Shown here: in pieces, positions 7,814 to 46,400 of the stretch
Position numbering within the stretch: position 1 is the first letter of the stretch
How the letters are laid out: each line of letters starts with the position of its first letter
NCBI GenBank assembly: GCA_964016885.1
Contig: OZ024740.1
Coordinates: forward strand, 201,996,001-202,060,000
Reading direction: 5' to 3'
Length of the DNA stretch: 64,000 nucleotides
Source of the DNA: Eledone cirrhosa
Lineage: Eukaryota
Notes under the pieces: model-generated
Databases searched by the model: none
What the model was told of the DNA's origin: nothing
The model's input: the letters and a program-made list of their open reading frames with translations, nothing else
Program-made: the position numbers and the translations under genes

Positions 7814-7855
<42 letters not shown>

Positions 7856-11904: not shown

Positions 11905-11958
11905 ATGATACTTTCCTCATTCATTAAAGGTAAGTATTTTCTACAGTGACTACAAGTT

Positions 11959-13753: not shown

Positions 13754-14105
13754 GTGTCTAATTAATATACGTACTTTCTAATTGATATACACACATATAC
13801 ACTTTAATTAATACACAGATACAGTGTCTAATTAATATACATACTGTTTAATTAATATACAAATTATCTAATATATACACTGTCTAATATATACACACTG
13901 TCTAATACACACACACTGTCTAATATACACACTGTCTAATATACACACTGTCTAATATACACAATGTCTAATATATACACTGTCTAATATACACACTGTC
14001 TAATATATACACTGTCTAATATATACACTGTCTAATATACACACTCTAATATATACACACTGTCTAATATATACACTGTCTAATATACACAGTCTAATAT
14101 ATACA
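13754..14105 (+). repeat. Satellite block A (TGTCTAATATACACAC, degenerate on the left)
   Basis: 14/16-bp monomers; TGTCTAATTAATATAC variants at the left edge. Confidence 0.9.
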
Positions 14106-14123
14106 GGATTTTATATCTATCTA

Positions 14124-14357
14124 TTTTTCCTTTGTGTGATAGCGATGGTGAAAGAGGTTGTATTGAGGAAAGGGGTACAAACTCTGGAGATGAGGGTTGC
14201 ACATTTTTCGGGGGGGGGGGGGTGTTACCCATATGTAATGTCTCCCCCTATTGGGGAAAGTCGACTAATTTTTAAATTGCATTTGTGATAATATTTTACA
14301 CGTTTTTATTGTATGTAAACTTCCTTCTTTTGTGCCACTGTGGCTAATAAAGAAACA
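14124..14357 (+). mobile_element. Short 3'-end Tx1-type copy with internal deletions
   Basis: Matches E3 at 30985-31023 and 31240-31457; flanked by TATCTATCTA (14114-14123) and (TATC)4. Confidence 0.85.
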
Positions 14358-14527
14358 TATCTATCTATCTATCTGCCTGGCGCGTGGAACATCGGCAGTA
14401 AGATTTTTTGTAGATTAACCCCCAAGCTGAATTGTCAACTGGGTGGTAATCCCATTTTCGCACCTAAAGGGGCGAAAATTTTATTTAAAAATTGTTTTAA
14501 AAAATCAAATTTTGCCAACTATAAAAC

Positions 14528-16327: not shown

Positions 16328-16368
16328 GTACACCTTTCGTCCCTTTTCTCCAACTCTTCTTCACCAAC

Positions 16369-19300
16369 ATGGCTAGTTTACGAGTTGGAACCGTGAACGT
16401 GCGTGGCCTAGGGATGCCCTGGAAACAGGGCCAACTTTTAAACGACCTTAGGGCACACAGTATGGATGTGATAGCCATCACCGAGTCCAGGATTCACAAC
16501 AGGCAGCAACTAACCCCCATCTTCGACGACTTTAAGATCTACGCATCTCTCTGTTAGCCAAGGGGTGGAGGTGGAGTGGCTGTCATGTTTAGGAAGAACC
16601 TGGACGTTGAAGTACAGCAAGTACACTTGGACCCGGAGGGTAGACTGGTAGTCCTAGACGTGAACAGTATTGGAGGTGGAGCCTTCAGACTGGTGGCCGT
16701 TTATGCCCCGACTGGGCAATCGCAATCACGGCCAGACTTCTTTAAGCGTCTAGAGTCTTTTCTGGGAACGTCTCGTTCCTTACTTTTAGTGGGAGACTGG
16801 AATAGTATCCTAGATGCACGATGGGACTATGTGGGAGCATGTCCCAGTAGAGGGAGGTGCAACAGTCTCCAAACTTTAATCGGCCGATTCCAACTGGCCG
16901 ATAGGTATCGACTGGATTTCCCGACTGCACCACAGTGGACGTGGGCAAACCGCAGCGGGACATATAGATCGTATTTAGAAAGGTTCTTCATTAGAGAAAG
17001 GGACAAGGAGATGTTAAGCTGTCCACGAATGCACATGTTTGCCTATTCAGATCACAAATTAGTCGTCTGCATAGTCAACCGTGACAGAACACATAGACAG
17101 GGACCCGGATACTGGAAGCTAAACGTGTCGTTGCCGGCACGTAAAGCTTACAGTGAACGGATAAGTAGACTAGTCAAGCAACAGTTAACGGGAGCCATCG
17201 TCATCAATAGCTGGTGGTACTCTCTCAAGAAAGCAATTAGAGTAGAATCGATAGGGTTTAGCAGAAAGTTAGCCTTAGAGAAAAACAAAGTAGAAAGAGA
17301 ACTAGTAGCCAAGGTAGAGGAGGCATTTAGAAGTGGCAACGCGGCTAGAGTGTTATAGCGTCGAGAACGGCACTGGACCAGTTCTTCGATGCGAAATACG
17401 AAAGCTGCGTGGTCAGAAGCAAAACACGTGCTCTGGGAAACGAAGGAGCGAAAGCTCTCAGCTGGGCCCGAGTGGCGGAGGCAAAAAGTGGCAACAAGTC
17501 CACGATTCGGTCTTTGAAAGACCAAAACGGAGGCGTGCTACTTGACCCCAAGCAAATGTGGGCGGCCTTTCAGCAGCACTTTGCGCGACTGTTTGAACAG
17601 AACGACGGTGAGCCGAACGGGGCAATGGACTTTAGTTCATATCTCGACGGCCTGCCGCGTCTCTCGAACACGGACGCCGAGTTCTGCGACAGACCGATCA
17701 CGGGCACTGAGGCACTGAAATACGGGACGCTCTGGGCCGCTGCGGGAAACGCAAGTCACTCGGTCTAGATGGTCTACCCTATGAGTTTTACATAGGCATG
17801 CCGGACTTGTTCTCTGGCGTCCTCGAAGCCGTCTACTGCAATTGGCAGCAGAACGGGAGAATTCCCAGTTCTGCAGGCAAGGACGTAGTAACGCTGATCA
17901 GGAAAGATGAGAACAAGGGGGACGAAATTAACAACTTCAGGCCCATAACTCTGCTCAACACAGAGTTAAAGATTTTGGCCAAGGTGCTAGCGACGAGGTT
18001 GGCGCTTGTCGTCGAGAACCTGGTAGGGAAAGCGCAAACGTGTGCAATCCCGACCAGGTCTATACACGACAACCTCCACCTCATGCGATACATCATAGAG
18101 AGGATGGGTATTAAACCCGGCTTCGGTGGGGCTCTGATCAATTTGGATTAGTCTAAGGCATTCGATAGGGTCGACCATCGATACTTGGAAGCGGTTCTCA
18201 AGGCGGCCGGTTTCGATCCCGTTTTCAGAGCCCGGATCGAGGCGATGCACACCAGCATCTGCTTGAGGGTCAAGGTGAACAGCTACCTATCGGAGCCGTT
18301 CGCAATCACGCGTTCCATTCGACAGGGGTGCCCTCTCTCCTCCATTCTGTATGTATTGACTCTAGATCCACTACTGCGGAAATTGGAGCTGTTGCAGGGC
18401 ATCCCTCTAGAACCGGGACTGCGCAAAGCGGCGTCGACTTATGCCGACGACGTGACGGTAATGGTGTCGAGCACCTCGGAAATCGGGGTGATCGGCAACT
18501 TACTGAAAGAATACGAAACGCTGACGGGAGCAAAACTAAACCCGGACAAGTCTGTCGGGTTGCAACTCGGTACGTGCAGAGGCAAACCGTTGACGTCCGA
18601 CAGCGTCGTTGGACGCTGGACGGATGGACCGGTGAAATTGCTCGGGTTCTGGTTCGGTTCAGACCTCCAGGTGGAGAAAAACTGGAACGAGGTCACGGCC
18701 AAGGTGTTTGCACCACTCAGAAGTGGGCAGAGTGCAAACTGTCCTTGAAAGGTCGAGCGGAGGTGGCGAACACTTTCATAGCGTCCGTCATCTACTACCG
18801 CTTGACTGTCGTACCTTGTCCCCGTGAACACCTCGCCAAGATGGAACGCATGTTCTTCCAGTTTCTGTGGAAGAAGCAGGCTCCGCTGGTGAGGAGATCC
18901 GTCTGCTGTCAGCACCCTTCCAACGGAGGGCTGGGCATGCCGTGGCTGATGGTGCGCAAACATGCGCTGAGACTGCGGCATCTCCAGGTATTCCTCGCCG
19001 ACCCCCAACCGGTGTGGCCACCGTTTGTGAGACAAGCTTTTCCACAGCTCATCTCGCTGACGGAGCTGCAGTCCTGGGTCAAGAAAAGACCGAAAACGAT
19101 GGGCGCCTGGCACATTGAATGCGCCCAGGCGCTCACAGTCCTCTGGCAAGCGGGCGCAGCAATCAGTGGAGACTCCACTTCGACATTCTATAGAGGGATT
19201 GTACGTTACAAGGGCGACGACGTGCTCTGAGAGACTCGTCGAAGACGATGAGCTCACCAGTCTGTTTGGTAGGACTTTCCGCCCGGGACCTATGAACAAC

Positions 19301-19818
19301 TTCCAGAGGTCCCTGGCCTGGCAGTGCTACCGAGGAGCTCTACCGGTTCGTGACAAGATCTACAGGCACGGACGCCCTGGCAGAGATCCTTCCAAGAGGA
19401 CGTGTCCAAGATGTGCGCAGGACATTGAAACAGTTCTGCACGCAATTGTACACTGCCCGGGCGTAAGCGACCTGTGGAACTATGCAGAACAACTGCTGTC
19501 GCGTATGAGACAAATCCAGTTGACTGCCGAGTCCATAGTAAGGATCAAACCGCCAGACTCTTTCAAAAACGAAAGAGAGGCGGTTTTCCTCTGTACGTGG
19601 CTATGGTGAAAGAAGTTATATGGTGGACGAGGTTGAGAGGACTGAGGACAGATGCCTTTCTCTCCGGACAACAATTGTTTCCCTTCTTTAAGTATCACTT
19701 TAGAAGGAGAATCAGGGTGGAGAGAGAGGCACTGCACCCCAATAAATTTACTGAAAGGTGGGTGAATGAAGCGAAAATGGCCCGAGTGATTGGGCCTTCT
19801 CTGTTTATAAGCCTATAG
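16369..19818 (+). pseudogene. E2 ORF2 (APE endonuclease, reverse transcriptase, Cys/His finger), disrupted
   Basis: NVRGL, E, GDWN, SDH, GYWKLN, FRPITLLN, KAFDRVDH, RQGCPLS, YADD, CPRC..ET..H...HC; several internal stops and frameshifts. Confidence 0.95.
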
Positions 19819-20050
19819 GTTAAAGAAGAGAGCAAAAGGAAGAAAGGAGCACTTGCACAACACGCTCCTGGAGTTGAGGGTTGTTCTATCGACGGGGTAT
19901 TAAACAACCCATTTGTGGCGCCTCCCCCTATTGGGGATTTTGATTGTTGAAATTGTTTGTTTTTATATTTTTTACACGACTGTATGTAAAATCCCCGGCA
20001 TGTCTTTGTATTGTCCCCTTTCTTGTTGCGCCCTTGTGGCTAATAAAGAA

Positions 20051-20051
<1 letters not shown>

Positions 20052-20092
<41 letters not shown>

Positions 20093-20105
20093 TTATCTCT
20101 CTATC
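20052..20105 (+). repeat. (TATC)n microsatellite spacer between E2 and E3
   Basis: About 13 TCTA/TATC units, the last few imperfect. Confidence 0.95.
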
Positions 20106-22946
20106 GGACGTGCGGCAAATCGCTGGTAAGTTTTTATAAAATTTTCAATACAAAAACAGAATTTATTGTGTAAAAATTTATATTGTTTGATAGATTAACA
20201 CCCAGGCTGAAATGTCAGCTGGGTGGTAATCATAGTTTTCGACCCACAGGGGCTGAAAATTAATTTTTAAAAATTGACAAGTTTTTTAAATTTTCATAAC
20301 TTTAACAATGTGTGACTTACAACGAACGCTAGACTGCGAGAAGAGAAGGAAAGAGACAGATATAAACGTTATATCTCCCTCTATTTCCATAGAAGTATCT
20401 ATGGAAACGAACAACAACAAAATTTCGTTTCGTAAAGAAATGAATATTTACACAAAAGATGAAAATAACAGCCCACAATAGACACCAAAAAAAAAAACAC
20501 AGAAACTGCTGTAATTGAAATAATTGACACAACTACACACGAAAAAACAAACAACAACACCAATAAGATGAAAATGTGAACAACACCAACCAGAACAACA
20601 ACAACAATGATAGCAACAACACCAACAACAACAACAGCAACACGTACAACTCCTCAAACAAGGAAAAGATTTCCTTTGCTCAAACCGTCCAAAAGACGGA
20701 ACTGTTTACATACCTTGACATTTCCAATGCTAGGGAGCTGTTAAGTGATGCAAAGCAGTATGTAACTTTTGGTGAGAGTGGTGCTTTCAGCATCACTTCT
20801 CAACAGTTACGTAGAGAAACTATCCTAAAAACAGTAATTTTTAGGACAGTTTCAAATGTGTCAAAAAAACCAGCCCAATTATCCCAAAACGACATTGAAC
20901 TGTTTCTGAAAAATTCAATAAAGGATATTGCCTTCATCCAAAAAGTAAACTTTTGGGAAGCATTTCGGTGTTGATGAAAAACCAATTGACGGCACAGAAA
21001 TATTCTGTGTCGCCGATTGTGTCGCCCCTTTACACCTTTTTCCCCACATATATGGGAAAAAGAACCCTGAAGATTAAAATTTCGAACATTTCACCAAATG
21101 TAAACGTCTGGTGGATTTTGACTGGCTTCATCGATTTCGATGAAGACACCATCATTTCAGTGGGAAAGTCCTCCAGAGGCACATTCAATGGTACCAGCCT
21201 GGAAGTTCTGGTCCAAATAAGGCCAGAATGGATAGCTAAAATACCCCAACGTGTGCCTCTGGATGGAATTTCATTCATAAACATTTCTGTTGAGGTAGGC
21301 GGCCTTCATGTTACCACTGTTTAAGCAGTGGTCACCTGACGGCTTACTGTCCTCAGCTAGCTGCAAAAAAAAGAGGCACTACTGCCAACACCCAAAACAC
21401 CAACACAACCACCACCACCACCACCACAACAACAACAACAACAACAACAACACGCAAATATAACCAAAACAAGAACAACAAACCAAACTGCAAGCACAGT
21501 CCCACCCAACCCCACTCCACCTAAAACCACTGCAAAAACACCCACAAACACAACAGCTCCCCAAAACATACCCCTTCCAAATAACACAGACACCACAACG
21601 GACGAGGCCCCCTCACCATCACTAAGTGACGATGAGGGACAGCCTCTCCGTTCGAAAAGAAAGAAGAAAAGACAGCACAAGAACAAAAAAGCAACAAACA
21701 TTACTACAAACATACAACTACCAACACAAACATTACAAACAACCCCCTCCCCCCGTCCTTCGGGGGGGAGGGGGTTGTTTGTAATGTTTGTGTTGGTGGT
21801 TGCAAAAGCACGACATCACTCCAAACACAAACACCTACAACAAAACGAAAGCTCACACAAGAACAACAGACAAAAACCAACACAATACAAAAAGAACATT
21901 ACACATACATAAACAGTGAAAACAAAACTTTAATGGAGGTCATCTCCCACGACCCTTCGGTGAAAACCGAAGGGAAAACTTTTTCGAACTGTGCAGAGAG
22001 ACCTAATTTAAAGATGATTAGGGTCCCTACGGACACCTATAAGTCTTTAAAGGAAAACTTTCCTAAGGACGTGGGTAATCCTTGTGTTAAACCCATTAAC
22101 CGCGTCCTTTTAAAATGTTTCCCCACCCTCACCCAGACACCCCCGCCCCATCAGACACCCCCTTCCCACCAAACATCTCCGTCACCACCCCGCCGGAAAC
22201 CACCACTCACCCAAACAACCCCTCCAACACCGCCATGGAAATCGTGCAGCCTGGTCCCAAGGAGACGAAGAGGTGAGTGATTTCTTTTCCTCTTCTTTTA
22301 ATTTTTCAGCACCAACATGGCCAATATAAGAGTTTGGATGTGTGAATGTACGCGGCCTGTGGATGCCCTGGAAACAGGGCAAACTCTTAAACGATCTCAG
22401 GCCGCACAGTATGGATGTAGTAGCCATTTGCGAGTCCAGAATCCACAACGAGCGACAGCTGGTCCCCATCTTCGACGACTTTGAGATATACGCATCTCTC
22501 TGTCAGCCGGGAGGTGGGGGTGGGGTTGCCGTTTTGCTGCGGAAACACCTGGACATCGTAACACAGACGATACATCTGGACCCGGAGGGTCGACTGGTGG
22601 TCCTAGACGTTGACGGTAGTGAAGGTGGAGTCTTCAGGCTGGTGATCGCATATGCCCCATACGGGACACTGCGGCCAGACTTCTTCAAACGTCTAGAGAC
22701 TTTTCTGGGAACGTCCCGCTTCTTGCTTTTAGTGGGGGACTGGAATGGAATCCTAGATGCACGTTGGAACTATGTGGGAGCATGTCCCGATAAAGGGGGT
22801 GTAACAGCCTCAAACAGTTAATCGGCGATTTGACCTGGCCGATAGATATCGACTAGATTTTCCGACTGTGCCACTGTGGACGTGGACTAATCGCAGCGGA
22901 ACATCTAGATCGTACCTAGATAGGGTTCTAGTTAGAAATAAAGATA
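20106..22946 (+). mobile_element. Tx1/L1-type LINE E3, 5' half (5' UTR, ORF1 about 20308-22276, ORF2 endonuclease from 22317)
   Basis: ORF1 with CYHCLSSGHLTAYC knuckle; endonuclease motifs up to SYLDRVLVRNKD, where it is interrupted by E4. Confidence 0.92.
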
Positions 22947-23178
22947 ATTTTTTTTATTAGCCACAAGGGCACAAAAGAATGGGACAAATACAAATGGGGA
23001 GTTTACATACAGGCATATGAAAATAAAACTATTAATAAAATAACAAATAACAATTGATATCCCCAATAGAGGGGAGGTGTTACACAGGGGTTGTACACAC
23101 CCCCAAAAATGTACAACCTTCTTCTCCAGGAGCACCAACAGTGAGTACTCCCTTCCTCTCTTCCCCTTTTTCCTCAAC

Positions 23179-26100
23179 CTACAGGCTTATATAGAGAGAA
23201 GGAGCAGCCACTCGGGCCATCTTTGCCACATTCACCTACCTTTTATAAAATTTGCTGGGGTACAGCACCTCTCTCTCCATCCTGATTCTTCTTCCAAAAT
23301 GATATTTGAAAAAACGAATCAGCTGCTCGCCGAAGAGAGAGGTGTCTGACCTCAGCCCTTTTAACCTCGTCCGCCATATAACCTCTTTCACCATAGCCAT
23401 AATACATAGGAAAACCGCCTCTCCCTCGTTTTTGAAGGAGAGTGGCGGTTTGATCATGACAATGGACTCGGTGGTCAACCGGATTGGTCCCACCCGCGAC
23501 AATAGTCGTTCTACATAGCCCCACAGGTCGGTAACGCCCAGGCAGTGTACAAATGCGTGCGCGACGGTTTCCTCGTCGCGCACGCATCTCGGACAGATCT
23601 TTTTCGAAGGGTCCCTATCCGGGCGCCCGTGTCTGTAGAGCTTGTCTCGAACTGGTAGAGCTCCTCGGTAGCACTGCCAGTCCAGGGACTTTTGGAAGTT
23701 GTCCATTGGTCCCGAACAGACTGGCCAGTTCGTCCTCCTCTACGCCTAGAGTTTCTCCGAGCGTGTCGTCGCACTTGCTGCGGACCAACCCTCTATAGAA
23801 TGTCGAAGTGGAGTCTCCACTGATCGCCGGGTCCGTTTGACAGAGGACTGTGAGCGTCTGAGCACATTCGATGTGCCAGTCGCCCATTTTCCTCTGTCTT
23901 TGCTTGACCCAGGACTGCAGCTCGGTCAGCGAAACGAGTCGTGGAAATGCTCGCCTCACGAACTGATTCTGAAAAATTCAATAAAGGATATTGCCTTTAT
24001 CCAAAAAGGTAAACTTTTTGGAAGCATTTCGGTGTTGATGAAAAACCAATTGACGGCACAAAAATATTCTGTGTCGCCGATTGTGTCGCCCCTTTACACC
24101 TTTTTCCCCACATATATGGGAAAAAGAACCCTGAAGATTAAAATTTCGAACATTTCACCAAATGTAAACGTCTGGTGGATTTTGACTGGCTTCATCGATT
24201 TCGATGAAGACACCATCATTTCAGTGGGAAGGTTCTCCAGAGGCACATTCAATGGTACAAGCCTGGAAGTTCTGGTCCAAATGAGGCCAGAACGGATAGC
24301 TAAAATACCCCAACGTGTGCCTCTGGATGGAATTTCATTCATAAACATTTCTGTTGAGGTTATCTGGTGAGGAATACGTGGAGGTGCCGCAGCCTGAGCG
24401 CGTGTTTGCGCATCGTCAGCCACGGCATCCCCAGCCTTCCGTTTGAAGGGTGTTGGCAGCAGATGGATCTTCTCACCAAAGGAGCCCGTTTCTTCCAAAG
24501 GAATTGGAAGAGCGCGCGCTCCATTTTGGTGAGCGTTTTGGCTGGAGAAGGCACGGCGGTCAAGCGGTAGTAGATGACGGACGCTATAAAAGTGTTCACC
24601 ACCGCCACTCGACCTTTCAAGGATAGTTTGCACTCAGCCCACTTCTGGGTGAGTGCAAACACCTTGGACCAAACCAGACCCCAAGCAGCTTTACCGGTCC
24701 TTCCGTCCAGCGTCCGACGCCGCCATCGGAAGGCATCGGTTTGCCTCTCCACGTTCCGAGTTGCAAACCGACGGATTTGTCCCGGTTCAGCTTCGCTCCT
24801 GTGAACCTTTCGTATTCCTCCAATAAGATGCCGATCTCCCCGATTTGCGAGGTGCTCGACACCATTACTGTCCGGTCGTCGGCGTAGGCCGACGCCGCTT
24901 TTCGCAGTCCCGGTTCCAAAGCGATGCCCTGCAATAGCTCCAACTTCCGCAGTAGTGGATCGAGAGTCAGTACGTACACAAGGGAGGAGAGAGGGCATCC
25001 CTGTCGGATGGATCGCGTGATATGGGACGGCTCCGAGAGGTAGCCGTTCACCTTGAGCCTTGAGCAGATGTTGCTGCTGTGCATTGCAGCAATCCAGCCC
25101 CTGAACATGGGTCCGAAGCCTGCCGCCTCGAGCACCGCATCCAGGTAACGATGGTCAACCCTATCGAAAGCCTTAGACTGATCCAAGTTGATCAGAGCCC
25201 CACCGAAGCTGGGTTTACACTCCACCCTCTCTATGCTGTATCGCATGAGGTAGAGGTTGTTGTGTATGGACCTGGTCGGGATTGTGCATGTCTGCGCTTC
25301 TCCCACCAGGTTTTCGACAAATGCCAGCCTCTTTGCCAACACCCTGGCCAAAATCTGTAACTCTGTGTTGAGCAGAGTTATGGGCCGGAAGTTGCCTATG
25401 TCATCCCCCTTGTTCTCGTCCTTCCTGATTAACGTGATTACGCCCTTGGTCACAGAACTGGGAATTCTCCTGTTCTGCTGCCAGTTGCAGTAGACCGCTT
25501 CCAGGAGACCGGAGAACAAGTCCGGCATTGCTACGTAAATTTCGTAGGGAAGACCGTCGAGACCTGGAGATTTGCGTTTGCCGCATTGGCTCAGCGCGTC
25601 CCCTATCTCAGCGGCCGAAATCGGTCTTTCGCAGAACTTCGCCTCGCTGTCCGAGAGTCGCGGTAGGCCGTCGAGGTATGGACCGAAATCCATAGCCCCT
25701 CCCGGCGCGCCGCCCTGCCCGAACAATTTTGCCTCCGTCACTCGGGCCTAGCTAACAGCTTTGGCTCCCTCGTTTCCCAGAGCACGTATTTTGCTTCTGA
25801 CAACGCAGCCTTCATGCTTTGCGTCGAAGAACTGGTCTAAGGCCGTTCTCGTCGCTAGCACGTTGGCTACGTTGCCACTTCTAATTGCCTCTTCTATTTT
25901 ATCTATCAGTTCCTTCTCGGTCCTATTTATATTTAACCCTAATACTTTACTAAAAACTAACGAGTCTAATCTAACTGCCCTCTTCAGAGAGTACCACCAT
26001 CTGTTGTTGACAATGGCCCCTGTCAAGTGCTGTTTAAATAAAGTGCTATCCATCTACTGTAGGCTTTGCAAGTCGGTAACGACAAGTTCAGCTTCCAGTA

Positions 26101-26990
26101 GCCGGGTCCTCGTCTATGGGTTCTATCTATGGGACCATGCAGGTCACTAGTTTGTGATCTGAATAGGCAACCATGAACATTTGTGGACAGCTTAACATGT
26201 CCCTATCTTTATCTATCTATCTGGGATGGACACACGCGTGAAACTTGCTGGGTAAGTTCAGCTTCCAGTAGCCAGGTCCCTGTCTATGGGTTTTGTCAAG
26301 GTTGACTAAGCAGGTCACTAATTTGTGATCTGAATAAGCAACCACGAATATTTGTGGACAGCTTAACATGTCCTTATCCTTCTTTCTAACTAGAACCCTA
26401 TCTAGGTACGATCTATATGTTCCGCTGCGATTAGTCCACGTCCACAGTGGCACAGTCGGAAAATCTAGTCGATATCTATCGGCCAGGTCAAATCGCCGAT
26501 TAACTGTTTGAGGCTGTTACACCCCCCTTTATCGGGACATGCTCCCGCATAGTCCCAACGTGCATCTAGGATTCCGTTCCAGTCCCCCACTAACAGCAGG
26601 GAGCGAGACATTCCCAGAAAAGTCTCTAGACGTTTGAAGAAGTCTGGCCGCGGTGTCCCGTATGGGGAATATGCGGCCACCAGCCTGAAGGCTTCACCTT
26701 CATTACCGTCAACGTCTAGGACCACCAGTCACCCTCCGGGTCTAGATGTACCGTCTGTTTTACGAGGTCCAGGTGTTTCCGCAGCAAAACGGCAACCCCG
26801 CCCCCACCTCCCGGCTGACAGAGAGATGCGTAGATCTCAAAGTCGTCGAAGATGGGGGCCAATTGTCGCTCGCAGTGGATCCTGGACTCGCAAATGGCTA
26901 CTACATCCATACTGTGCGACCTGAGGTCGTTTAAGAGTTTGCCCCGTTTCCAGGGCATCCCCAGGCCGCGTACATTCACACATTGGCCAT
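23179..26990 (-). pseudogene. E4 ORF2 (endonuclease and reverse transcriptase), disrupted by deletions and two templated insertions
   Basis: ORF fragments 26465-26725, 26217-26453, 24617-25741 and 23236-23706 carry EN, RT and finger motifs. Confidence 0.9.
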
Positions 26991-27030
26991 GTTGGTGCTG
27001 AAAAGTTAAAAGAAGAGGAAAAGAAATCAC

Positions 27031-28555
27031 TCACCTCTTCGTCTCCTGGAGACCAGGCTGCACAATTTCCATGGGGGTGTTGGAAGGGTTGTTTGGTGGG
27101 GTGGTGGTCTCTGGCGGGGTGGAGACGGAGATGTTTGGTGGGGAGGGGTGTCGGGGGGGGGGGGGGGGCATTTCAAAAGGACGCGGTTATAGGGTTTGAC
27201 GCAGGGGTTACCTACGTCGTTAGGAAATTTATCTTTTAACTGTTTATGTGTGTCCATGGAGATCCTAATCATTTTAAGGTTAGGATTCTCCGCAGAGTAT
27301 GTAAAAGTTTTCCCTTCGGTCTCCACCGAAGGGTTTTTATATATGGTGTCTGTTAAAGTTTTATTGTTAGTATTTATGTAGGTATAACATTTTTGTTGTG
27401 TTGTGTTGCTTTTTTCTGTGGTTCTTGTGTGTGTTTACGTTTTGTAGTAGCTGTTTTGTTTTCAGGAGGGGGTGTTTTTGTTTGTGCTGTTTGCGTCGCT
27501 TGTATTGGTGTGTGTGTGTTTGTTGCATTTTTGTTTGTGTTATGTCTTTTCTTTTTTCTTTTTACTGGTCGGAAAGGCTCTCCCTCATCGTCACTGGGTG
27601 ACGATGATGAGGCTTCATCCGTGTTGTTGGGGAGGGGTACATTTTGAGGAGCTGTTATGTGTGTTGGTGTTTCTGGAGTTGTTTTAGGGGGGCGACTGTG
27701 TTTGCAGTTTGGTTTGTTTTTGTGTGTTGTTGTTGTTGTGGTGGTGGTGGTGGTTGTGTTGTTGTGTTGGGTGTCGGCAGTAGTGCCTTTTTTTTAATGC
27801 AGTTAATTGAGGACAGGAAGCCCTCAGGTGACCACTGCTTAAACAGTGGTAACATGAAGGCCGCCTACCCTCAACAGAAATGTTTATGTAGGAATTTCCA
27901 TCCAGAGGCACACGTCGTGGTATTCTAGCTATCCGTTCAGGCCTCATTTGGACCAGAACTTCTAAGCTTGTACCGTTGAATATGCTCCCGAAATTACTGT
28001 ATCTTCATCAAAATTGATGAAACCAGCTATTATCCACCAGATGTTTACATTTGGTGTGATATTTGTTATTTTTATTTTTTGGGTCCTTTTTCCCATGTAT
28101 GTGGGGAAAAAGGTGTAGAGGGGGGGGGGGACACAATTGGCGACACAGAATATTTCTGTGCCGTCAATTGGTCTTTCATTATTATTGATAAACTCCCGAA
28201 GAGTTTTCCCTTCTGTATTAAGGCAATGTCCTTCATGGAGTTTCTTAGAACCAGCTCAATTTCGTTTTGAGTTAATTGAGTTGGTTTTCTGGTGGTATTT
28301 GAGATTGTCCTAAAAACTATGGTTTTCAGGACAGTGTCTCTACGCAATTCTTGGGGAGAAGTGATGCTAAAAGCACCATTCTCCCCAAAAGTTATATATT
28401 GCTTGGCATCTCTTAGCAATTCTCCGGCATTAGAGATGTCAATCTGTGTATATAGTTCTGTATTTTGGACAGTTTGTGCAAACGAGACCTTTTTTCCTTG
28501 TTTGTGGAGTTGTTGTTGTCATTATTGTTGCTGCTGTTGGTGTTGTCATTGTTGT

Positions 28556-28610
<55 letters not shown>

Positions 28611-28880
28611 CTCAATTGCTTGATCTGTGGTTGCGGAATTCATTTGTGAAGTTGTGTTTTCGTTCCTAGCATTGTTGTTATTGTTGTTGCTGGTGCCGCT
28701 GGTTGTGTTGTTTTGGTTTGTTGCCATGGCAACGTCAAGTTGTCGGTCAGCAGGTGGAGAAAATCCTTCCTCTGGCTGACCTTTGTCTTTGACATCTGCT
28801 ACTATGACAGTGGTAGGGGCAAGCTGTAAGCATATCTTCCCCTTTCTTCCTTCGAATGTTGGTGAAGAAGCTTCAGCCAT
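27031..28880 (-). pseudogene. E4 ORF1, frameshifted
   Basis: Fragments 28413-28880, 28072-28419, 27684-27947 (CCHC) and 27027-27326; (AAC)n tract at about 28555-28610. Confidence 0.85.
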
Positions 28881-29094
28881 TTTTTTTAAATGTTAGCTTT
28901 TCCAAAAAAACCTTTTATGTACTATTTCGCCTAAAGGCGTAGAATATTTTGAGAAACTGACCAGATCAAAATTTGACCTGGCATCCCCCGAAAAATTGGT
29001 ATAAAAATGAAGGTTCACAGTTAAGAATTTCTATAGAAATTTAGGCAGAACTTACCCAGCAAGTTTCACGCGTGTGTCCATCCCAGATAGATAG

Positions 29095-31457
29095 ATAAAG
29101 ATAGGGACATGTTAAGCTGTCCACAAATGTTCATGGTTGCCTATTCAGATCACAAACTAGTGACCTGCATGGTCCCATAAAGAGAACCCATAGACGAGGA
29201 CCCGGCTACTGGAAGCTGAACTTGTCGTTACCGACTTTCAAAGCCTACAGTAGATGGATAGCACTTTATTTAAACAGCACTTGATAGGGGCCATTGTCAA
29301 CAACAGATGGTGGTACTCTCTGAAAAGGGCAGTTAGATTAGACTCATTAGTTTTGAGTAAAGTATTAGCGTTAAATAGAAATAGGACCGAGAAGGAACTG
29401 ATAGATAAAATAGAAGAGGCAATTAGAAGTGGCAACGTAGCCAACGTGCTAGCGACGAGAACGGCCTTGGGACAGTTCTTCGACGCAAAGCAGAGGGCTG
29501 CGATGTCAGAAGCAAAATACGTGCTCTGGGTTACGAGGGAGCCAAAGCTGTTAGCTGGGCCCGGGTGACGGAGGCAAAAAGTGGCAACAAGTCCACGATT
29601 CGGTCTTTGAAGGACCAAGACGGACGTGTGATACGTGAACCGAAGCAGATGTGCGCGGCCTTTCAGCGGCACTTTTCTCAGCTGTTCGGGCAGGGCGGTG
29701 CGCCGGGAGGGGCTATGGATATCGGTCCATACCTCGACGGCCTACCGCGACTCTCGGACAGCGAGGCGAAGTTCTGCGAAAGGCCGATTTCGGCCGCTGA
29801 GACAGAGGACGCGCTGAGCCAATGCGGCAAACGCAAATCTCCAGGTCTCGACGGTCTACCCTACGAATTTTACGTAGCAATGCCGGACTTGTTCTCGGGT
29901 CTCCTGGAAGCGGTCTACTGCAACTGGCAGCAGAACAGGAGAATTCCCAGTTCTGTGATTAGTCACACTAGTCAGGAAGGACGTGGAGAGGCAAACGGAT
30001 GCCTTCCGATGGCGCAGTCGGACGCTGGACGGAAGGACCGGTAAAGCTGTTCGGGGTCTGGTTTGGTCCGAACCTCCAGGTGGAGAAGAACTGGAACGAG
30101 GTGACGGCCAAGGTGTTTGCACTCACTCAGAAGTGGGCCGAGTGCAAACTATCCTTGAAAGGTCGAGCGGAGGTGGCGAACACATTTATAGCGACCGTCA
30201 TCTACTACCGCTTGACCGTCGTGCCTTGTCCAGCCAAAACGCTCACCAAAATGGAGCGCGCGCTCTTCCAATTCCTTTGGAAGAAGCGGGCTCCTTTGGT
30301 GAGAAGATCCATCTGCTGCCAACACCCTTCCAACGTAGGGCTAGGTATGCCGTAGCTTATGATGCGCAAACACGCGCTCAAGCTGCGGCATCTCTACATA
30401 TTCCTCACCGTAAAACCGGTGTGGGCCCGATCGTGAGGCGAGCATTCCCACGACTCATCTCGCTGACCGAGCTGCAGTCCTGGGTCAAGCAAAGACCGAG
30501 GAAAATGGGCGACTGGCACATCGAATGTGCTCATGCGCTCACAGCCCTCTGGCAAGAGGACCCGGCGATCAGTGGAGACTCCACTTCGTCATTCTATAGA
30601 GAGTTGATCCGCAGCAAGTGCGACGTCGCGCTCGGAGAAGCTCTAGGCGTAGAGGAAGACGAACTGGCCAGTCTGTTCGGTAGGACCTTCTGCCCGGGAC
30701 CGATGGACAACTTCCAAATGTCCCTGGCCTGGCAGTGCAACCGAGGAGCTCTATCAGTTCGGGACAAGCTCTACAGACATGGGCGCCCGGGCAGGGACCC
30801 TTCGAAAAAGATCTGTCCGAGATGCGTGCGAGACGAAGAAACGCATTCATACACTGCCCGGGCGTTACCGACCTGTGGGGCTATGTAGAACGACTATTGT
30901 CGCGGGTGGGACCAATCCGGTTGACCACCGAGTCGATTGTCATGATCAAACTGCCACCCTCCTTCAAAAACGAAGGAGAGGCGGTTTTCCTTTGTGTGAT
31001 AGCTATGGCAAAAGAAGTTGTATGCTGGACAAGGTTAAAAGGGCTGAGGTCAGACACCTTTCTCTCCGGCCAACAACTGATTCTTTTTTCCAAATAACAC
31101 TTTGGAAGAAGAATCAGGATGGAGAGAGAGGTGCTGTACCCCAGCAAGTTTTATGAAAGGTGGGTGAAAGTGGCGAGAATGGCTCAAGCGAATGGGCCTT
31201 CTCTCTATATCAGCCTGTAGGTTGAGGAAAAAGAGGAAGAGAGGAAAGGGATACAAACTCTTCGTACGCCTGGAGATGAGGGTTGCACATTTTTTCGGGG
31301 GTATGTGTTACCCATATGAAATGTCTCCCCATATTAGGGAAAATCGATTAACTTTTAAATTGCGTTTGTGATAATATTTTACACGTTTTTATTGTATGTA
31401 AACTTCCCCCTTTGTATTTGTCCCCTTTTTTGTGCCGCTGTGGCTAATAAAGAAACA
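29095..31457 (+). mobile_element. Tx1/L1-type LINE E3, 3' half, with the RT core deleted
   Basis: Resumes the endonuclease at KDRDMLSCPQ, exactly where the 5' half stopped. A deletion of about 0.67 kb at 29981 removes YADD. Stop at 31220; ends AATAAAGAAACA|TATCTAATAC. Confidence 0.92.
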
Positions 31458-34400
31458 TATCTAATACACACATTGTCCAATATACACACTGTCTAATATA
31501 CACACTGACTAATACACACACTGTCTAATGTAAACAGTGTCTAATATATACATTGTCTAATGTATACGCTGTCTAATATATACACTGTCTAATATATACA
31601 CTGTCTAATATATATACACTGTCTAATATACACACTGTCTAATATACACACTGTCTAATATATACACTGTCTAATACACACACTGTCTAATATACACACT
31701 GTCTAATATATACACTGTCTAATAAACACTGTCTAATATATAGACACTGTCTACTACACACACTGTCTAATATACACGCTGTATAATATACAGTTTCTAA
31801 TACACACACTGACTAATATACACACAGTCTAATATACACATTGTCTAAAATATACACTGTCAAATATTCACACTGTCTAATATACAGTCTAATATAGTGT
31901 CTAATACACACACTGTCTAATATACACACTGTCTAATATACACACTGTCTAATATATACACTCTCTAATAAACACACTATCTAATACACACACTGTCTAA
32001 TATACACACTGTCTAATATACACTGTCTAATATACACTGTCTGATACACACACTGTCTAATATATACACTGCCTAATATACACACTGTCTAATATATAAA
32101 CTGTCTAATATATACACTGTCTAATATATACACTGTCTAATATATACACTGACTAATATACAAACTGTCTAATACACACACTGTCTAATATATACACTGT
32201 CTAATATATACACTGTCTAATATACACATTGTCTAATATATACACAGTCTAATATATACACTGTCTAATATACACACTGTCTAATATATACACTGTCAAA
32301 TATACACTGTCTAATATATACACTGTCTAATATACACACTGTATAATATATACACTGTCTAATATACACACTGTCTAATATATACACTGTCTAATATATA
32401 CACTGTCTAATATACACAGTGTCTAATATACACTGTCTAATATACACACTGTCTAATATATACAGACTGTCTAATACACGCACTGTCTAATATACACACT
32501 GACTAATATACAGTTTCTAATACACACACTGTCTAATATAAAAAACTGTCTAATATACACATTGTCTAATATATACACTGTCTAATATACACACTGTCTA
32601 ATATACAGTCTAATATACAGTGTCTAATACACACACTGTCTAATATACACACTGTCTAATATACACACTGTCTAATATATACACCGTCTAATATACACAC
32701 TATCTAATACACACACTGTCTAATATACACACTGTCTAATATACACTGTCTAATATACACTGTCTGATACACAGACTGTCTAATATATACACTGCTTAAT
32801 ATACACACTTTCTAATATATGAACTGTCTAATATATACACTGTCTAATATACACACTATCTAATACGCACACAGTCTAATATGTACACTGTCTAATATAC
32901 ACACTGTTTAATATATACACTGTCAAATATACACTGTCTAATATATACACTGTCTAATATATACACTGTCTAATATACACACTGTATAATGTATACACTG
33001 TCTAATATACACTGTCTAATATATACGCTGTCTAATATATACACTGTCTAATATACACACTGTATAATATATACACTGTCTAATATACACACTGTCTAAT
33101 ATATACACTGTCTAATATACACACTGACTAATATACAGTTTCTAATACACACACTGTCTAATATAAAAAAAACTGTCTAATATACACATTGTCTAATATA
33201 TACACTGTCTAATATACACACTGTCTAATATACAGTCTAATATACAGTGTCTAATACACACACTGTCTAATATATAGTGTATAATACACACACTGTCTAA
33301 TATATAGTGTCTAATACACACACTGTCTAATATATAGTGTCTAATACACACACTGTCTAATATAAACACTGTCTAATATACACACTGTCTAACATATACA
33401 CTGTCTAATGTACACACTCTCTAATACACACAGTGTCTAATATACACACTGTCTAATATACACTGTCTAATATATACACTGTCTAATATATACACTGTCT
33501 AATATACACACTGTCTAATACACACACTGTCTAATATATACACTGTCTAATATACACACTGACTAATACACACACTGTCTAATATATACACTGTCGAATA
33601 TACACACTGTCTAATATATACACTGTCTAATAGAGACACTGTCTAATATACACAATGTCTAATATATACACTGTCTAATATATACACTGTCTATCATACA
33701 CACTGTCTAATATACACACTGTTTAATATACACACTGTCTAATATACACACTGTCTAATATATACACTGTCTAATATATACACTGTCTAATATACACACT
33801 GTCTAATATACACACTGTCGAATATATACACTGTCTAATATACACTGTATAATATATACACTGTCTAATATATACACGGTCTAATACATACACTGTCTAA
33901 TATACACACTGTCTAATTTACACACTGTCTAATATATACACTGTCTAATATACACTGTGTAATATACACTGTCTAATATACACATCGTATAATATATAAT
34001 ATACAAACGGTCTAATATACACACTGTCTAATATACACACTGTCTAATATACACTTTTTAATATACACACTGTCTAATATATAGTCACTTTCTAATATAT
34101 ACACTGTCTAATATATACACTGTCTAATATGCACACTGTCTAATATATACACTGTCTAATATACACACTGACTAATATACACACTGTCTAATATACACAC
34201 TGTCCAATATACACACTGTCTAATATACACACTGTCTAATATATACAATGTATAATATACACACTGTCTAATATATACACTGTCTAATATACACACTGTC
34301 TATTATATACACTGTCTAATATACACAATGTCTAATATACACACTGTCGAATATATACACTGTCTAATATACACTGTATAATATATACACTGTCTAATAT

Positions 34401-39220: not shown

Positions 39221-42200
39221 CCCACTCCCGAAAACAAAACACCCACAACAAAGAGAAAACACATACCGGAACCACAGACAAAAACAAACACAACACAGGA
39301 AAAGTACACATACACTTACATAAACGAAGAAAATAGAACACTGATGGAGACCATCAGAAACAACCCTTTGCTCAAAACCGAAGGGAAAACTTTGGATAGC
39401 TCCAACAAAAACAAAAAAATGAACCTAAAACTGATCAGGGTCCCTATAGGAACTTATAGATCCCTAAAAGAAACATTTGTAGAGGACGTGGGGAATTACT
39501 GCGTGAAACCAATCAACCGCGTTATCTACAAAGGCCTCCCCACCAGAGGCACCCCCACCCAAGTCATCCTCACCCCACCAGACACCCCTTCCCCACCAAA
39601 CATCTCCGTCCCCACCCCGCCAGAAACCACCACCCCACCCAACAACCCATCCCCCACCCTCATGGAAATTGTGCAGCCCGATACCCGGGACGCAGAGAGG
39701 TAAGTGCCTTTTCTCTTCAACACCAACATGGCAATGCTAAGAGTAGGCTGTTTAAATGCGCGTGGCCTGGGCTCAACTTGGAAGAAAGCAATGTTTCTAA
39801 ATGACCTCAGGTCACAACGTATAGATGTGATGGTTATTTGCGAGGCCCGGATCAGCAACGTGCGACAGCTGGCCCCCACCTTTGATGACTTTGAGATGCA
39901 CGCATCTCTCTGTCAGCCCGGAGGTGGGGGTGGGGTTGTCGTTCTGCTGCAAAAACATCTGGGTCTCGCAACACAGATGGTACATTTGGACCCGGAGGGT
40001 CAACTAGTGGTTCTGGACCTTGGCAGTGGTGAAGGCGGAGCGTTTAGGTTGGTAGCCGCCTACGGCCCTTTCGGGTCAATGCGGCCGGACTTCTTCCATC
40101 GTCTGGAGACTTTTCTAGGGACCTCCCGCTCCTTGCTATTAGTGGGGGACTGGAATGGTATCCTAGATGCACGCTGGGACTACGTAGGGGCCTGTCCCGA
40201 TAGAGAGGGGTGTAATAGCCTCAAAGGGTTAATCGGTCGATTTGACCTGGCCGATAGATATCGACTAGATTTTCCGACTGCTCCAACCTGGACTTGGGCA
40301 AATCGTAGCGGATCATCTAGGTCGTACCTAGATAGGTTCTTAGTTAGAGTTAAGGATAAGGACTTTTTAAGTTGTCCAAAAATGCGCATGGTTGGCTATT
40401 CAGACCACAAGTTAGTGACCTGCATGGTCAACCTTGACAGAACTCATAGACAGGGACCCGGTTACTGGAAGCTCAACTTGTCCTTACCGGCAAGTAAGGC
40501 TTACAGGGAGCGGATTAGCACTTTAGTTAAGGAGCGGTTGACGGGCGCCATCGTCAACAGCAGGTGGTGAGGATCTCTCAAAAGAGAGCTTAGAGTAGTC
40601 TCTATAGAATTTAGTAAGGAGTTAGCCTCAAATAGAAATAGGAAGGAAAGGGAGTTGGTAGATAGTGTAGAAGAGGCAATTAGAAGCGGCGACGTGGCCA
40701 GAGTGCTAGCGTCGAGAACGGCCCTGGGCCAGTTCTTCGACGCGAAACACGAAGGCTGCTTCGTCCGAAGCAAAATACGTGCTCTGGGAAACGAGGGGAC
40801 CAAAGCTGTTAGCTGGGCCCGCGTGACAGAAGCCAAAAGAGGGAGCAGATCCACTATCCGGTCTTTGCGCGACCAGGATGGATGGGTGATCCTTGAACCT
40901 AAGCAGATGTGCGAGGCTTTTCAAAAGCACTTTGCCGGATTGTTCGGAAGGGGCGGGGAGCCGGTTGGGGATGTGAACTTCGGTCTATACCTCGACGGCC
41001 TGCCGCGTCTCTCGGACAGGGAGGCGAAGTCCTGCGAGGAGCCGATTTCAGCCGCTGAGATAGAGGACGTGCTGAGCCAATGCGGCAAACGCAAATCCCC
41101 GGGTCTCAATGGTCTTCCTTACGAACTATATCTAGCTATGCCGGATTTGTTCCCCGATCTCATCGAGGCGGTCTACTGCAACTGGCAACAGAACGGGAGA
41201 ATTCCCTGTGCTGTGACCAAGGGCGTAGTCACGCTAGTGAGGAAGGACGAGAACAAGGGGGACGATATAAATAATTTCAGGCCCATAACTCTGCTAAATA
41301 CAGAGTTACAGATTTTGGCCAAGGTGCTAGCAAAGAGGTTGGCGCTTGTCGTGGGCAACCTGGTGGGAGATGCGCAGACATGTGCTATCCCGTCCAGGTC
41401 CATCCACGACAACCTCCACCTCATGCGATACATCATAGAGAGGGTTGGGAACGAATCCGGCTTTGGTGGGGCCCTGATCAACTTGGATCAATCTAAGGCA
41501 TTCGATAGGGTCGACCATGGTTACCTGGATGCGGTGCTAGCGGCGGCAGGCTTCGGACCCGTTTTCAGGGGCTGGATCAATGCCATGCACAGCAGCCGCA
41601 TCTGCTCTAGAGTCAAGGTGAACGGCTACCTCTCGGAGCCGTTCGAAATCGCGCGGTCCATCCGACAGGGGTGCCCTCTCTCCTCCCTTCTGTATGTAAT
41701 GACTCTAGAGCCACTGCTGCGGAAGTTGGAGTTGTTGCAGGGCATCCCGTTGGAACGAGGATTGCGGAAAGCGGTGTCGGCCTACGCCGACGACGTAACA
41801 GTAATGGTGTCTACGGCCTCGGAAATCGGGGCGATCGGCACCTTACTGGAGGAGTACGAAAGGTTTACAGGGGCTAAGCTGAACCGGGACAAGTCGATCG
41901 GTCTGCAACTCGGCACGTGGAGGGGCAGATTGATGCCCTCCGATGATGTCGTCGGGCGCTGGACGGAGGGCCCGGTGAAGTTGCTCGGGGTCTGGTTCGG
42001 ACCAGACCTCCAGGTGGAGAAGAACTGGGGTGAGGTAGCGAACAGGGTATTTGCACTGACCTAGAAGTGGGCCGAGTGCAAACTGTCCCTGAAAGGTCGG
42101 GCGGAGGTGGCGAACACTTATATAGCATCCGTCATCTACAACCGACTGACCGTTGTGCCTTGCCAAAGGGAAAAGCTCGCAAAAATGGAGCGCGCACTCT

Positions 42201-43427
42201 TCCAATTCCTTTGGCAGAAGCGGGCTCCTATGGTGAGGAGATCCATCTGCTGTCAACACCCTTCGAAAGGAGGGCTGGGGATGCCGTGGCTAATGATACG
42301 TAAACACGCATTAAGGCTACGGCACCTTCAGGTATTCCTCACCGGTCAACCGGTGTGGGCCCCATTTGTGAGGCGAGCCTTTCCCAGACTCGTCTCACTC
42401 ACCGAGCTGCAATCCTGGGTCAAGCAAAGACCGAGAAAACTGGGCGCCTGGCACACCGTGTGTGCCCAGGCGCTCACGGCTCTCTGGCAGGCGGACCCGG
42501 CTGTCAGTGGAGAATCCACTTGTCATTCTATAGAGGGCTGGTGGTTAGCAGGTGCGACGACGCCCTCGGAGAAGCCCTAGACATGGAGGAAGACGAACTG
42601 GCCAACCTGTTCGGTAGGACATTCAGCCCGGAACCACGGATAACTTCCAGAGGTCCCTGGCCTGGCAATGCTCCAGAAGGGCTCTGCCCGTTCGAGAAAG
42701 GCTCTACAGACACGGGCGCCGGGGTAGGGACCCCTCGAAAAAGATATGTCCCAGATGCGTGTGCGACGAGGAAACCGTTGCACACGCATTGTTACACTGC
42801 TCGGGCATTGCCGATCTGTGGGGCTATGTCGAACAACTGCTGTCAAGGGTGGGACCGATCCGGTTGACCACCGAGTCTATTGTAACGATCAAGACGCCTC
42901 CCCTCTTCAAAAACGAAGGAGAGGTGGTGTTTCTGTGCGTAATAGCCATGGCGAAAGAGGTTGTATGGTGGACGCGTCTGAAAGGACTGAGGTCAGACAC
43001 CTTTCTCTCTGGCCAACAACTGGTCCGTTTCTTCCGATATCATTTCGGAAGAAGGATCAGGATGGAGAGAGAGGTGCTGCACCCCAGCCGTTTTTATGAA
43101 AGATGGGTGAAAGTGGCGAGAATGGCCCGTGTGAATGGGCCTTCACTCTACACCAGACTATAGGTGAGGAAGATGAAAGACCAAGGGAGCACCCTCTCTC
43201 TGTGCTCCTGAGGAAAAGGGTTGCGCACTTTTTTTCGGGGGTGGGTGCGACCCCCCAAGGCGCCTCTTCTCTATTGAGGATTTTGTTATAAATTTTATTC
43301 TGTTATATTTTATTTTATTTTTATATTTTGTTATTGCCTCCTCCTTATTGAGGACGCCTTGTTTTGTAAACTCCCCCCCATTGTACTTGTCCCACTTTTG
43401 ATGCCCTGGTGGCAAATAAAAGAAACA
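39221..43427 (+). mobile_element. Tx1/L1-type LINE E5, truncated within ORF1
   Basis: ORF1 tail to 39703, ORF2 39728-43163, 3' UTR ending AATAAAAGAAACA|TATCTAATATAC; satellite on both sides. Confidence 0.95.
39728..43163 (+). pseudogene. E5 ORF2 (best-preserved EN-RT; stops at 40570 and 42064, 3' frameshifts)
   Basis: A 288-aa endonuclease ORF and a 469-aa RT ORF in the same frame, with GDWN, SDH, RQGCPLS and YADD. Confidence 0.95.
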
Positions 43428-46400
43428 TATCTAATATACACAACGTCTAATATATACACTGTCTAATATATACACTGTCTAATATACACACTGTCTAATA
43501 TATACATTGTCTAATATACACACTGTCTAATTTACACACTGTCTAATATATACGCTGCCTAATATACACTGTCTAATATAGACTGTCTAATATAAACACT
43601 GTCTAATATACACTGTCTAATATATACACTGTCTAATATAGACTGTCTAATATACACACTGTCTATTATACACACACAGTCTAATATACACACTGTCTAA
43701 TATACACTGTCTGATATACACACTGTCTAATATACACACTGTCTAATATATACACTGTCTAATATACTCACTGTCTAATATACACACTGTCTAATATACA
43801 CAAACTGTCTAATATACACACTGTCTAATACGCACACTGTCTAATATACACTGTCTAATATATACACTGTCTAATATAGACTGTCTAATATACACACTGT
43901 CTATTATACACACACTGTCTAATATACACGCTGTCTAATATACACACTGTCTAATATATACACTGTCTAATATACTCACTGTCTAATATACACACTGTCT
44001 AATATACTCAAACTGTCTAATATACACACTGTCCAATATACACACTGTCTAATACACACACTGTCTAATATACACACTGTCTAATAATCACTGTCTAATA
44101 TACACACTGTCTAACATACACTGCCTAATAAACACACTGTCTAATATACACACTGTCTAATATATACACTATCTAATATACACACTGTCTAATATATACA
44201 CTGTCTCATATATATACCGTCTAATTTACACACTGTCTATTATACACACACTGTCTAATATACACACTGTCTAATATCCACTGTCTAATATACACTGTCT
44301 AATATATACACTGTCTAATATACAATGTAAAATATGTACACTGTCTAATATACACACTGTCTAATATGCACACTGTCTAATATATACACTGTCTAATATA
44401 CACTGTCTAATATATACGCTGTCTCATATATATATACTCTCTAAATTAAACACTGTCTAATATACACACTGTCTAATATACACACTGTCTAATATACACA
44501 CTGTCTAATATACACACTGTCCAATATATACAATGTATAATATACACTGCCTAATATATACACTGTCTGATATACACACTGTCTAATATATACCCTGTCT
44601 AATATACACAATGTCTAATATACACAGTCTAATATACACTGTCTAATATACACACTGTCTAAAATATACACTGTCTAATATACACACTGTCTAATATATA
44701 CACTGTCTAATATATACAGTGTCTAGTACACACGCTGTCTAATATACACACTGTCTAATATATACACTGTCTAATATACACACTGTCTAATATACACACT
44801 GTCTAATATACACATGTCTAATATATACACTGACTAATATACACACTGTCTAATACACACACTGTCTAATATATACACTGTCTAACATACACTGCCTAAT
44901 ATACACACTGTCTAATATACACACTGTCTAATATATACACTATCTAATATACACACTGTCTAATATACACACTGTCTCATATATACACTCTCTAATATAC
45001 ACACTGTCTAATATACACACTCTCTAATATACACACTGTCTAATATACACACTGTCTAATATATACACTGTCTAATATACACAGTGTCTAATATACACTG
45101 CCTAATATACACACTGTCTAATATATGCACACTGTCTAATACACACGCTGTGTAATATACACCCTGTCTAATATACAGTTTCTAATACACACACTGTCTA
45201 ATACACACACTGTCTAATATACACATTGTCTAATATACAGTTTAATATACAGTGTCTAATACATACACTGTCTAATACACACACTGTCTAATATACACAC
45301 TGTCTAATATACAGTTTAATATACAGTGTCTAATACACACACTGTCTAATATACACGTTGTCTAATATATACACTCTCTAATATATACACTGTCTAATAT
45401 ACACACTGTCTAATATGCACACTGTCTAATATTCACTGTCTAATATACACACTGTCTAATATGTACAATGTATAATATACACACTGTCTAATATATACGC
45501 TGTCTAATATACACACTGTCTAATATATACACTGTCTAATATACACAATGTCTAATATACACACTGTCTAATATACACCTGTCTAACATACACACTGTCT
45601 AATATATACACTGTCTAATACATACACTGTCTAATATACACACTGTCTAATTTACACACTGTGTAATATATGCACTGTCTAATATACACTGTGTAATATG
45701 CACTGTCTAATATACACACAGTCTAATATTCACACTGTCTAATATATACACAGTCTAATATACACACTGTCTAATATACACAATGTCTAATATACACACT
45801 GTCTAATATACACACTGTCTAATATACACACTGTCTAATACACACACTGTCAAATATACACACTGTCTAATATACACACTGTCTAATATACACACTGTCC
45901 AATATATACAATGTATAATATACACTGCCTAAATATACACTGTCTGATATACACACTGTCTAATATATACCCTGTCTAATATACACAATGTCTAATATAC
46001 ACAGTCTAATATACACTGTCTAATATACACACTGTCTAATATATACACTGTCTAATATACACACTATCTAATATATACACTGTCTAAAATATACAGTGTC
46101 TAGTACACACGCTGTCTAATATACACACTGTCTAATATATACACTGTCTAATATACACACTGTCTAATACACACACTGTCTAATATATACACTGTCTAAT
46201 ATACACATTGTCTAATATATACACTCTCTAATATATACACTGTCTAATATACACACTGTCTAATATGCACACTGTCTAATATACACACTGTCTAATATAC
46301 ACATGTCTAATATATACACTGTCTAATATACACAATGTCTAATATACACACTGTCTAATATACACCTGTCTAACATACACACTGTCTAATATATACACTG

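Follow-up and report, generated by a model that had tools for sequence, protein, structure and literature searches.

A short TATC-like leader at the 5′ end of full-length copies of a TATCT-targeting LINE family in Eledone cirrhosa, and its likely origin in the donor's upstream repeat

The window, by which we mean the whole 64,000-nucleotide stretch of Eledone cirrhosa DNA analysed here, carries a cluster of related LINE copies, designated E0 and E2 to E5 (Table 1). One of these, E3, is interrupted in its endonuclease region by another, E4, which lies in antisense orientation and divides its host into a 5′ part (E3a) and a 3′ part (E3b). A 16-bp satellite, TCTAATATACACACTG, occupies large tracts at 31460–54843 and 13749–14105, and both E3 and E5 terminate at satellite TCTAAT, a sequence similar to the TATCT target of these elements. 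Furthermore, the region 2389–11906 holds at least six copies of a dispersed SINE-like repeat of 150–230 bp that are 75–87% identical.

Table 1. Features of the LINE cluster, in coordinates of the window
Feature	Position	Strand	Remarks
E0, 5′-truncated E3-type 3′ fragment, preceded by TATCTATCTAT (14114–14124)	14114–14362	+	Possible insertion into an older leader
E2, full-length, different subfamily	14375–20052	+	(TATC)4 ahead at 14358–14374
(TATC)~13 spacer, E2 3′ end to E3 5′ end	20051–20105	+	
E3a, host 5′ part (ORF1 + endonuclease domain)	20106–22946	+	
TSD copy, E4 3′ side	22938–22946	+	ATAAAGATA; TATCT overlaps the E4 tail TTTATCT
E4	22947–29084	-	Full-length degenerate two-ORF APE/RT LINE, antisense within E3 ORF2; AATAAA at 22958–22953
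Copy of E3a 20897–21296 inside E4	23960–24360	+	97.5% identical; probable second local template switch
Inverted copy of E4's own 5′ junction + E3b, inside E4	25417–26259	-	Sources 29048–29579 (96%) and 29683–29983 (93%)
Conserved 5′ motifs of E4	29051–29070	-	CGTG at element position 15 (29070–29067), GTAAG at position 30 (29055–29051); candidate internal promoter
10-nt TATC-like 5′ leader of E4	29085–29094	-	AGATAGATAG, which is CTATCTATCT on the E4 strand; absent from the empty site
TSD copy, E4 5′ side	29095–29103	+	ATAAAGATA; TATCTTTAT read on the E4 strand
E3b, host 3′ part	29095–31462	+	Terminates at the 16-bp satellite
E5, 5′-truncated copy in the 16-bp satellite	39221–43428	+	5′ junction without TATC; in-window control

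The copies belong to an APE/RT LINE family of the L1 group that has been active recently and takes TATCT and (TATC)n as its insertion sites. Pfam recognizes Exo_endo_phos, RVT_1 and zf-RVT (27.4 bits, against a cut-off of 27.5) in the ORFs of the window, and the architecture is that of the L1 group: an ORF1 followed by an ORF2 with an N-terminal APE domain, a central RT and a C-terminal zinc finger. A natural intact copy elsewhere in the genome, L261, encodes an ORF1 of 583 aa and an ORF2 of 1145 aa, and a PDB search with ORF2 retrieved L1 ORF2p at E=6.5e-49 (residues 7–856), versus E=4.9e-19 for the best R2 match. We call the family 'Tx1-like', a provisional label presumed from architecture and target preference; a labelled Tx1 reference was found neither among 56 homologs nor among the atlas matches. 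The available text of PMC4494074 defines target preference as more than 20% of flanks; in 41 copies picked by 5′ similarity alone, a TATC-like 12-mer lies upstream of 36 and downstream of 24. Ten young copies are 98.4–98.9% identical to L261, and the 1145-aa ORF2 is kept in 9 of 11 young copies. The young subfamily with intact ORF2 (~99% identical) consists of L240, L241, L245, L250, L252, L254, L255, L261 and L273, and its 5′ ends and bodies are often mosaic. The copies also bear the marks of TPRT, namely target-site duplications (TSDs), 5′ truncation and a fixed 3′ end. TTTATCT begins 24 of 29 3′ ends in a set chosen for non-TATC flanks, TATCT stands at the start of the TSD in 10 of 12 5′-truncated copies, and the target of E4 within E3 was a lone TATCT pentamer.

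The E4-in-E3 junction had drawn attention in the original prediction, which described a 9-bp duplication flanking E4 and 10 extra nucleotides between this duplication and the first unique base of the element. Both are present: ATAAAGATA stands on either side of E4, its inner edge being soft because TATCT is shared with E4's own 3′ tail TTTATCT, and the 10 nt separate the 5′ copy from the unique E4 end, GGGATGG on the minus strand (first base 29084). That the extra nucleotides are missing from the uninterrupted ORF2 site, as also proposed, is borne out as well. The reconstructed empty site, with a single ATAAAGATA and no extra nucleotides, has 58 exact matches in the 3.0-Gb assembly, and GATAGATAGA occurs in 0 of 54 distinct homologous ORF2 sites among the family loci examined. 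Furthermore, two DNA runs from one sample yield 5 and 6 contigs with the uninterrupted form up to 29093/29095, which may derive from other copies rather than from an empty allele of the E4 locus; in two runs from other organisms (X5 and X6), coverage is confined to parts of ORF2. An E3 that natively carried the 10 nt is ruled out by the empty-site matches, the homologous sites and the contigs. Since empty sites lack them, the extra nucleotides arrived with or after the E4 insertion.

One part of the claim needs amending. The motif was said to be absent from the corresponding sites in E2, E4 and E5; this holds for uninterrupted sites, but E4 itself contains its 5′ junction a second time, in inverted orientation, with the same leader at 26213–26222 and the TSD copy at 26204–26212. 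The inverted copy was joined at a 6-nt GAACTT microhomology. The junction at 26204–26259 was considered as an independent insertion and rejected, as it has the same flanks, is inverted and is confined to a single locus among those examined. Because the inverted segment (26259–25417) was found only at the E4 locus among the family loci examined, it represents a later local rearrangement. Together with the copy of E3a sequence inside E4, it is best read as the likely product of post-insertion local template switches between inverted homologous elements. The leaders of the two junction copies are identical while their flanks differ by ~4%, so that the leader has been stable since the junction was duplicated. 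Elsewhere in the cluster, E3 ORF1 contains a near-perfect fold-back hairpin with a TTCG loop (21716–21800), which we read as a further local snap-back. It coincides with a mir-30 Rfam match below gathering score; mir-type Rfam matches in general stay under the gathering threshold and fall on hairpins or simple repeats. In addition, the 5′ junctions at G000:C2:319802024-319802054 and at L244 have inverted element sequence upstream, forming a palindrome around TCT that suggests cDNA snap-back.

The leader of E4 is no isolated case. From ~1200 candidate family matches, we collected 100 distinct copies that have both a complete 5′ end and a 3′ end, a non-random subset in which some copies are internally deleted or recombined. 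A strict TSD rule (a perfect duplication, 9 nt or longer, that includes non-repeat sequence) passes 15 of the 100 true end pairs versus 46 of 9900 mismatched pairs. The 15 copies have 10, 11, 15, 12, 27, 14, 16, 13, 5, 14, 12, 14, 17, 13 and 9 extra nt; when mismatches in the TSD are allowed, the extras drop to 3 (L240), 1 (L251) and 8 (L273); for L107 the figure is ~16 by eye. With TSD ends checked in this way, a TATC-like leader of 8–17 nt separates the TSD from the unique 5′ end in 13 of the 15, the two leaderless copies being L240 (3 nt) and L251 (1–5 nt, with a TSD of 40–44 bp). A looser TSD rule, under which 8.9% of mismatched pairs pass, gave 8 or more extra nt for 18 of 27 full-length copies and for 0 of the 12 5′-truncated copies that have a TSD (Fisher p=8e-5). 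These 12 remain from 26 truncated copies examined, 14 of which have no TSD of at least 9 nt, and their extras range from -5 to 6. A set chosen by 3′ flank contained two full-length copies with a TSD, having 11 and 17 extra nt, and a third without a TSD. In the 41 copies picked by 5′ similarity, those with the TATC-like 12-mer on one side only have it upstream in 15 cases and downstream in 3 (p=0.008). For many of the full-length copies, selection used a pattern that required a G no more than 20 nt upstream; this sets a ceiling on the leader length that can be seen and under-samples longer leaders. A search for longer leaders in the E2- and E3-type subfamilies reduced 15 candidate loci to two usable cases, of 12 and 13 nt. 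The observation at E4 is thus real and generalizes across full-length copies: numerous independent insertions, together with the control of truncated copies, support the proposal that TATC arrives with the element at its 5′ end, and the full-length insertions that could have contradicted it largely possess the leader.

How these nucleotides arise can be approached through the truncated copies and through the leader sequence itself. As no truncated copy has 8 or more extra nt, addition at any junction is excluded. Growth of extra units after insertion, by replication slippage from the TSD and the adjoining TCT, would fit the expansion of TATC tracts in this genome, where many spacers are long, but no such gain is seen in truncated copies whose TSDs likewise start with TATCT (0/12), the threshold for tetranucleotide slippage is ~4 units according to the accessible part of PMC3812793, and the leaders of the two E4 junction copies have not diverged along with their flanks. 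Given the truncated copies and this threshold, we regard post-insertion slippage as very improbable. A different possibility is that no more than a short unit, UCU or AUCU, stands at the RNA's 5′ end and that the RT stutters at the template end, remaking the repeats at each insertion. Such stuttering would account for the near-fixed TCT at -1 to -3 (109, 103 and 101 of 111 ends) and for the variable leader length (8 to 17), and it likewise predicts truncated copies free of additions. It fails, however, to explain why the same two-base variant, CTCTTTATCT, with departures from the repeat at -6 and -8, precedes 7 of 27 E2-type sites at unrelated loci with different flanks (5 of 23 in a second count), and it does not account for the imperfect leaders of L108, L250 and L326; we consider it improbable.

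Further variants recur in the other subfamilies. TCTCTCTATC lies ahead of 8 of 26 E3-type ends, and E4-type ends carry a C at -4 in 45 of 111 cases, compared with 4–15 of 175 for the first three positions in A phase within 3′ flanks; a junction register shifted by 2 nt could also yield such a C. When CTCT is scored as a label on a tree of 112 5′ ends, it requires 25 changes versus 33.6 when shuffled (0/500 as low), a modest clustering that near-duplicates (L035/36, L048-51) inflate and that leaves ATCT and CTCT mixed in the youngest clade; the ATCT label is barely clustered (32/500). Because leader variants reappear in unrelated loci at fixed positions, a leader templated by RNA is favoured over RT slippage. 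We infer that the leader is inherited through the RNA and that it frequently becomes overwritten on annealing to a repeat target. Of the two mechanisms originally offered, an RNA start in the upstream TATC is therefore the one these variants favour, while slippage by the RT is disfavoured.

We propose that full-length copies carry an 8–17 nt TATC-like leader likely because their RNA begins inside the TATC tract upstream of the donor, a reading based on sequence comparison. In such a cycle, the endonuclease would nick at TATCT, and the 3′ UAUCU of the RNA would anneal at the nick and prime reverse transcription. Subsequently, the cDNA would extend to the RNA's 5′ end, thereby copying the leader. 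At a (TATC)n target, the copied leader could anneal to the upstream target DNA and disappear into the repeat, giving a precise junction, whereas at a lone TATCT, such as that in E3 ORF2, it would be unable to anneal and would be joined as extra sequence. Every daughter would thus retain the repeat required for an identical start in the next cycle.

The start would most likely be set by a candidate internal Pol II promoter comprising a conserved CGTG/ACG element and GTAAG. CGTG or CGTA occupies a constant position in 110 of 120 E4-type, 31 of 37 E2-type (plus 3 at position 7) and 25 of 27 E3-type ends, and GTAAG at position 30 (107 of 120 ends), 24 (32 of 37) and 21 (26 of 27) in these three subfamilies. 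The fixed CGTG recalls the CGTG downstream promoter element (DPE) that PMC4748587, in the portion available, describes for other LINEs. The spacing of a DPE, with CGTG ~25–32 nt past the start, predicts leaders of 10–17 nt for the E4 type (8–17 seen) and of 21–26 nt for the E3 type (13 seen, in L326 alone). The GTAAG motif, 21–30 nt into every 5′ end, also resembles a splice donor. A GTRAGT and a pyrimidine tract occur right before the ORF2 ATG in E2–E5 (22274–22279, 16324–16329, 39701–39706), followed by an acceptor AG in E3 and E4 only. At the 5′ end of L261, the E4-type GGATGGA could pair with leader UCUAUCU via G-U, and the E2 and E3 types have no such pairing.

A leader of this kind could also stem from a read-through RNA that starts in an upstream element or at a host promoter and is cut within the TATC spacer, the cleavage being due either to a ribozyme or to 3′ processing of the copy upstream. 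Another element's 3′ end does lie within 200 nt upstream of 33 of 60 E4-type 5′ ends, a bare AATAAAGAAAC occurs within the upstream stretch of L295, and there are precedents, as R2 employs a ribozyme and HeT-A RNA starts in the upstream element (PMC1636488, in its accessible text). Searches for a ribozyme speak against it: Rfam, which misses divergent ribozymes, gave no ribozyme-family match at E<=1 in the window from 11000 to 32000 or in three natural copies, and an HDV L3-like motif scan of four copies returned one loose match, at +138, in two of them. Read-through followed by cleavage is, on this evidence, decidedly improbable. The TATC tracts upstream of L295 and L083 contain bare AATAAAGAAAC-like tail fragments, which could be ultra-short insertions or longer leaders that include a neighbour's 3′ end.

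If RNA initiation in the upstream repeat is the source of the leader, full-length insertion would have consequences for the target itself. It had been proposed that each insertion seeds new targets. Fresh TATC units are indeed deposited, since off-target full-length insertions leave 2–4 TATC-like units; evidence for their later reuse is ambiguous. None of 15 arrays traced upstream gives a clean insertion order. The cases compatible with seeding are E0, whose TATCTATCTAT adjoins satellite without TATC runs, L300 and L302, all of them simple-sequence and ambiguous, while L107 is a full-length copy inserted at the 3′ junction of an older copy and points to that side instead. Furthermore, the leader is not needed for making a target, because a single TATCT is enough and is itself duplicated in each TSD. 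Longer TATC tracts may nevertheless be preferred targets, and seeding through leader deposition is plausible, though only suggested by these cases. A more far-reaching version holds that the element builds its own niche: the transcribed leader would plant a 2–4 unit TATC tract with each off-target full-length insertion, these tracts would expand and nucleate head-to-tail arrays, and the LINE would be a main source of the genome's TATC/GATA microsatellites. We regard this as speculative and, on balance, rather unlikely.

The family bears on several questions. The joining of 5′ ends in non-LTR elements is unsettled, and second-strand priming is called the greatest uncertainty of the R2 model in the available part of PMC3774820; the leader, hidden in repeats and exposed at a lone TATCT, provides a natural experiment with and without annealing. 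The leader also offers a 5′-side route for microsatellite birth, next to the 3′ tails and internal proto-repeats described in the review literature consulted. For annotation, the true 5′ end of an element would lie 8–17 nt upstream of its first unique base, and the subfamily with intact ORFs makes the leader model testable. The literature searched yielded neither a Tx1 element that targets TATC nor a repeat leader that is co-transposed; Kojima and Fujiwara 2004, subscription papers, Repbase and the supplements of PMC4494074 may hold one, and the accessible sections of PMC4640811, PMC7265360 and PMC6530143 contain nothing on 5′ leaders.

Among known systems, LINEs that target microsatellites are the nearest in target choice. 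They include Kibi at (TC)n, Koshi at (TTC)n and crocodilian Tx1 at (TTCC/TTTC)n (PMC4494074, PMC3812793), and further Waldo, Mino and Dong. Kibi, Koshi and crocodilian Tx1 share with the present family an APE-type machinery, a preference for pyrimidine-rich microsatellites, TSDs and tandem insertions, but in the parts of these two papers available TATC is absent from their target lists and no 5′ repeat leader is reported. HeT-A and SINEU-2, the latter described with 5′ extensions in the available text of PMC4494074, resemble the family in that upstream flank is carried at the RNA 5′ end into new copies; their extension is unique neighbour sequence, whereas here it is short and consists of the target repeat itself. 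The closest precedent, by analogy, is the upstream-28S leader of R2, although the family itself is not R2. R2 RNAs with 9–36 nt of upstream 28S sequence give precise junctions, or tandem duplications of 13–28 nt if annealing fails (Eickbush et al. 2013, PMC3774820, in the portion available). In both systems a target-like 5′ leader would leave a precise junction when annealed and a leader-length duplication when not, and junction variants can propagate; leader-length extra sequence is indeed what non-annealed full-length 5′ junctions of the present family display, and truncated ones do not. R2, however, is a single-ORF element of the rDNA whose 5′ end is made by an HDV-like ribozyme, while the present elements have two ORFs and an APE, target a dispersed microsatellite and yielded no ribozyme in our searches. 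The comparison would thus extend the target-homologous 5′ leader beyond R2 and the rDNA, to a recently active APE-type family.
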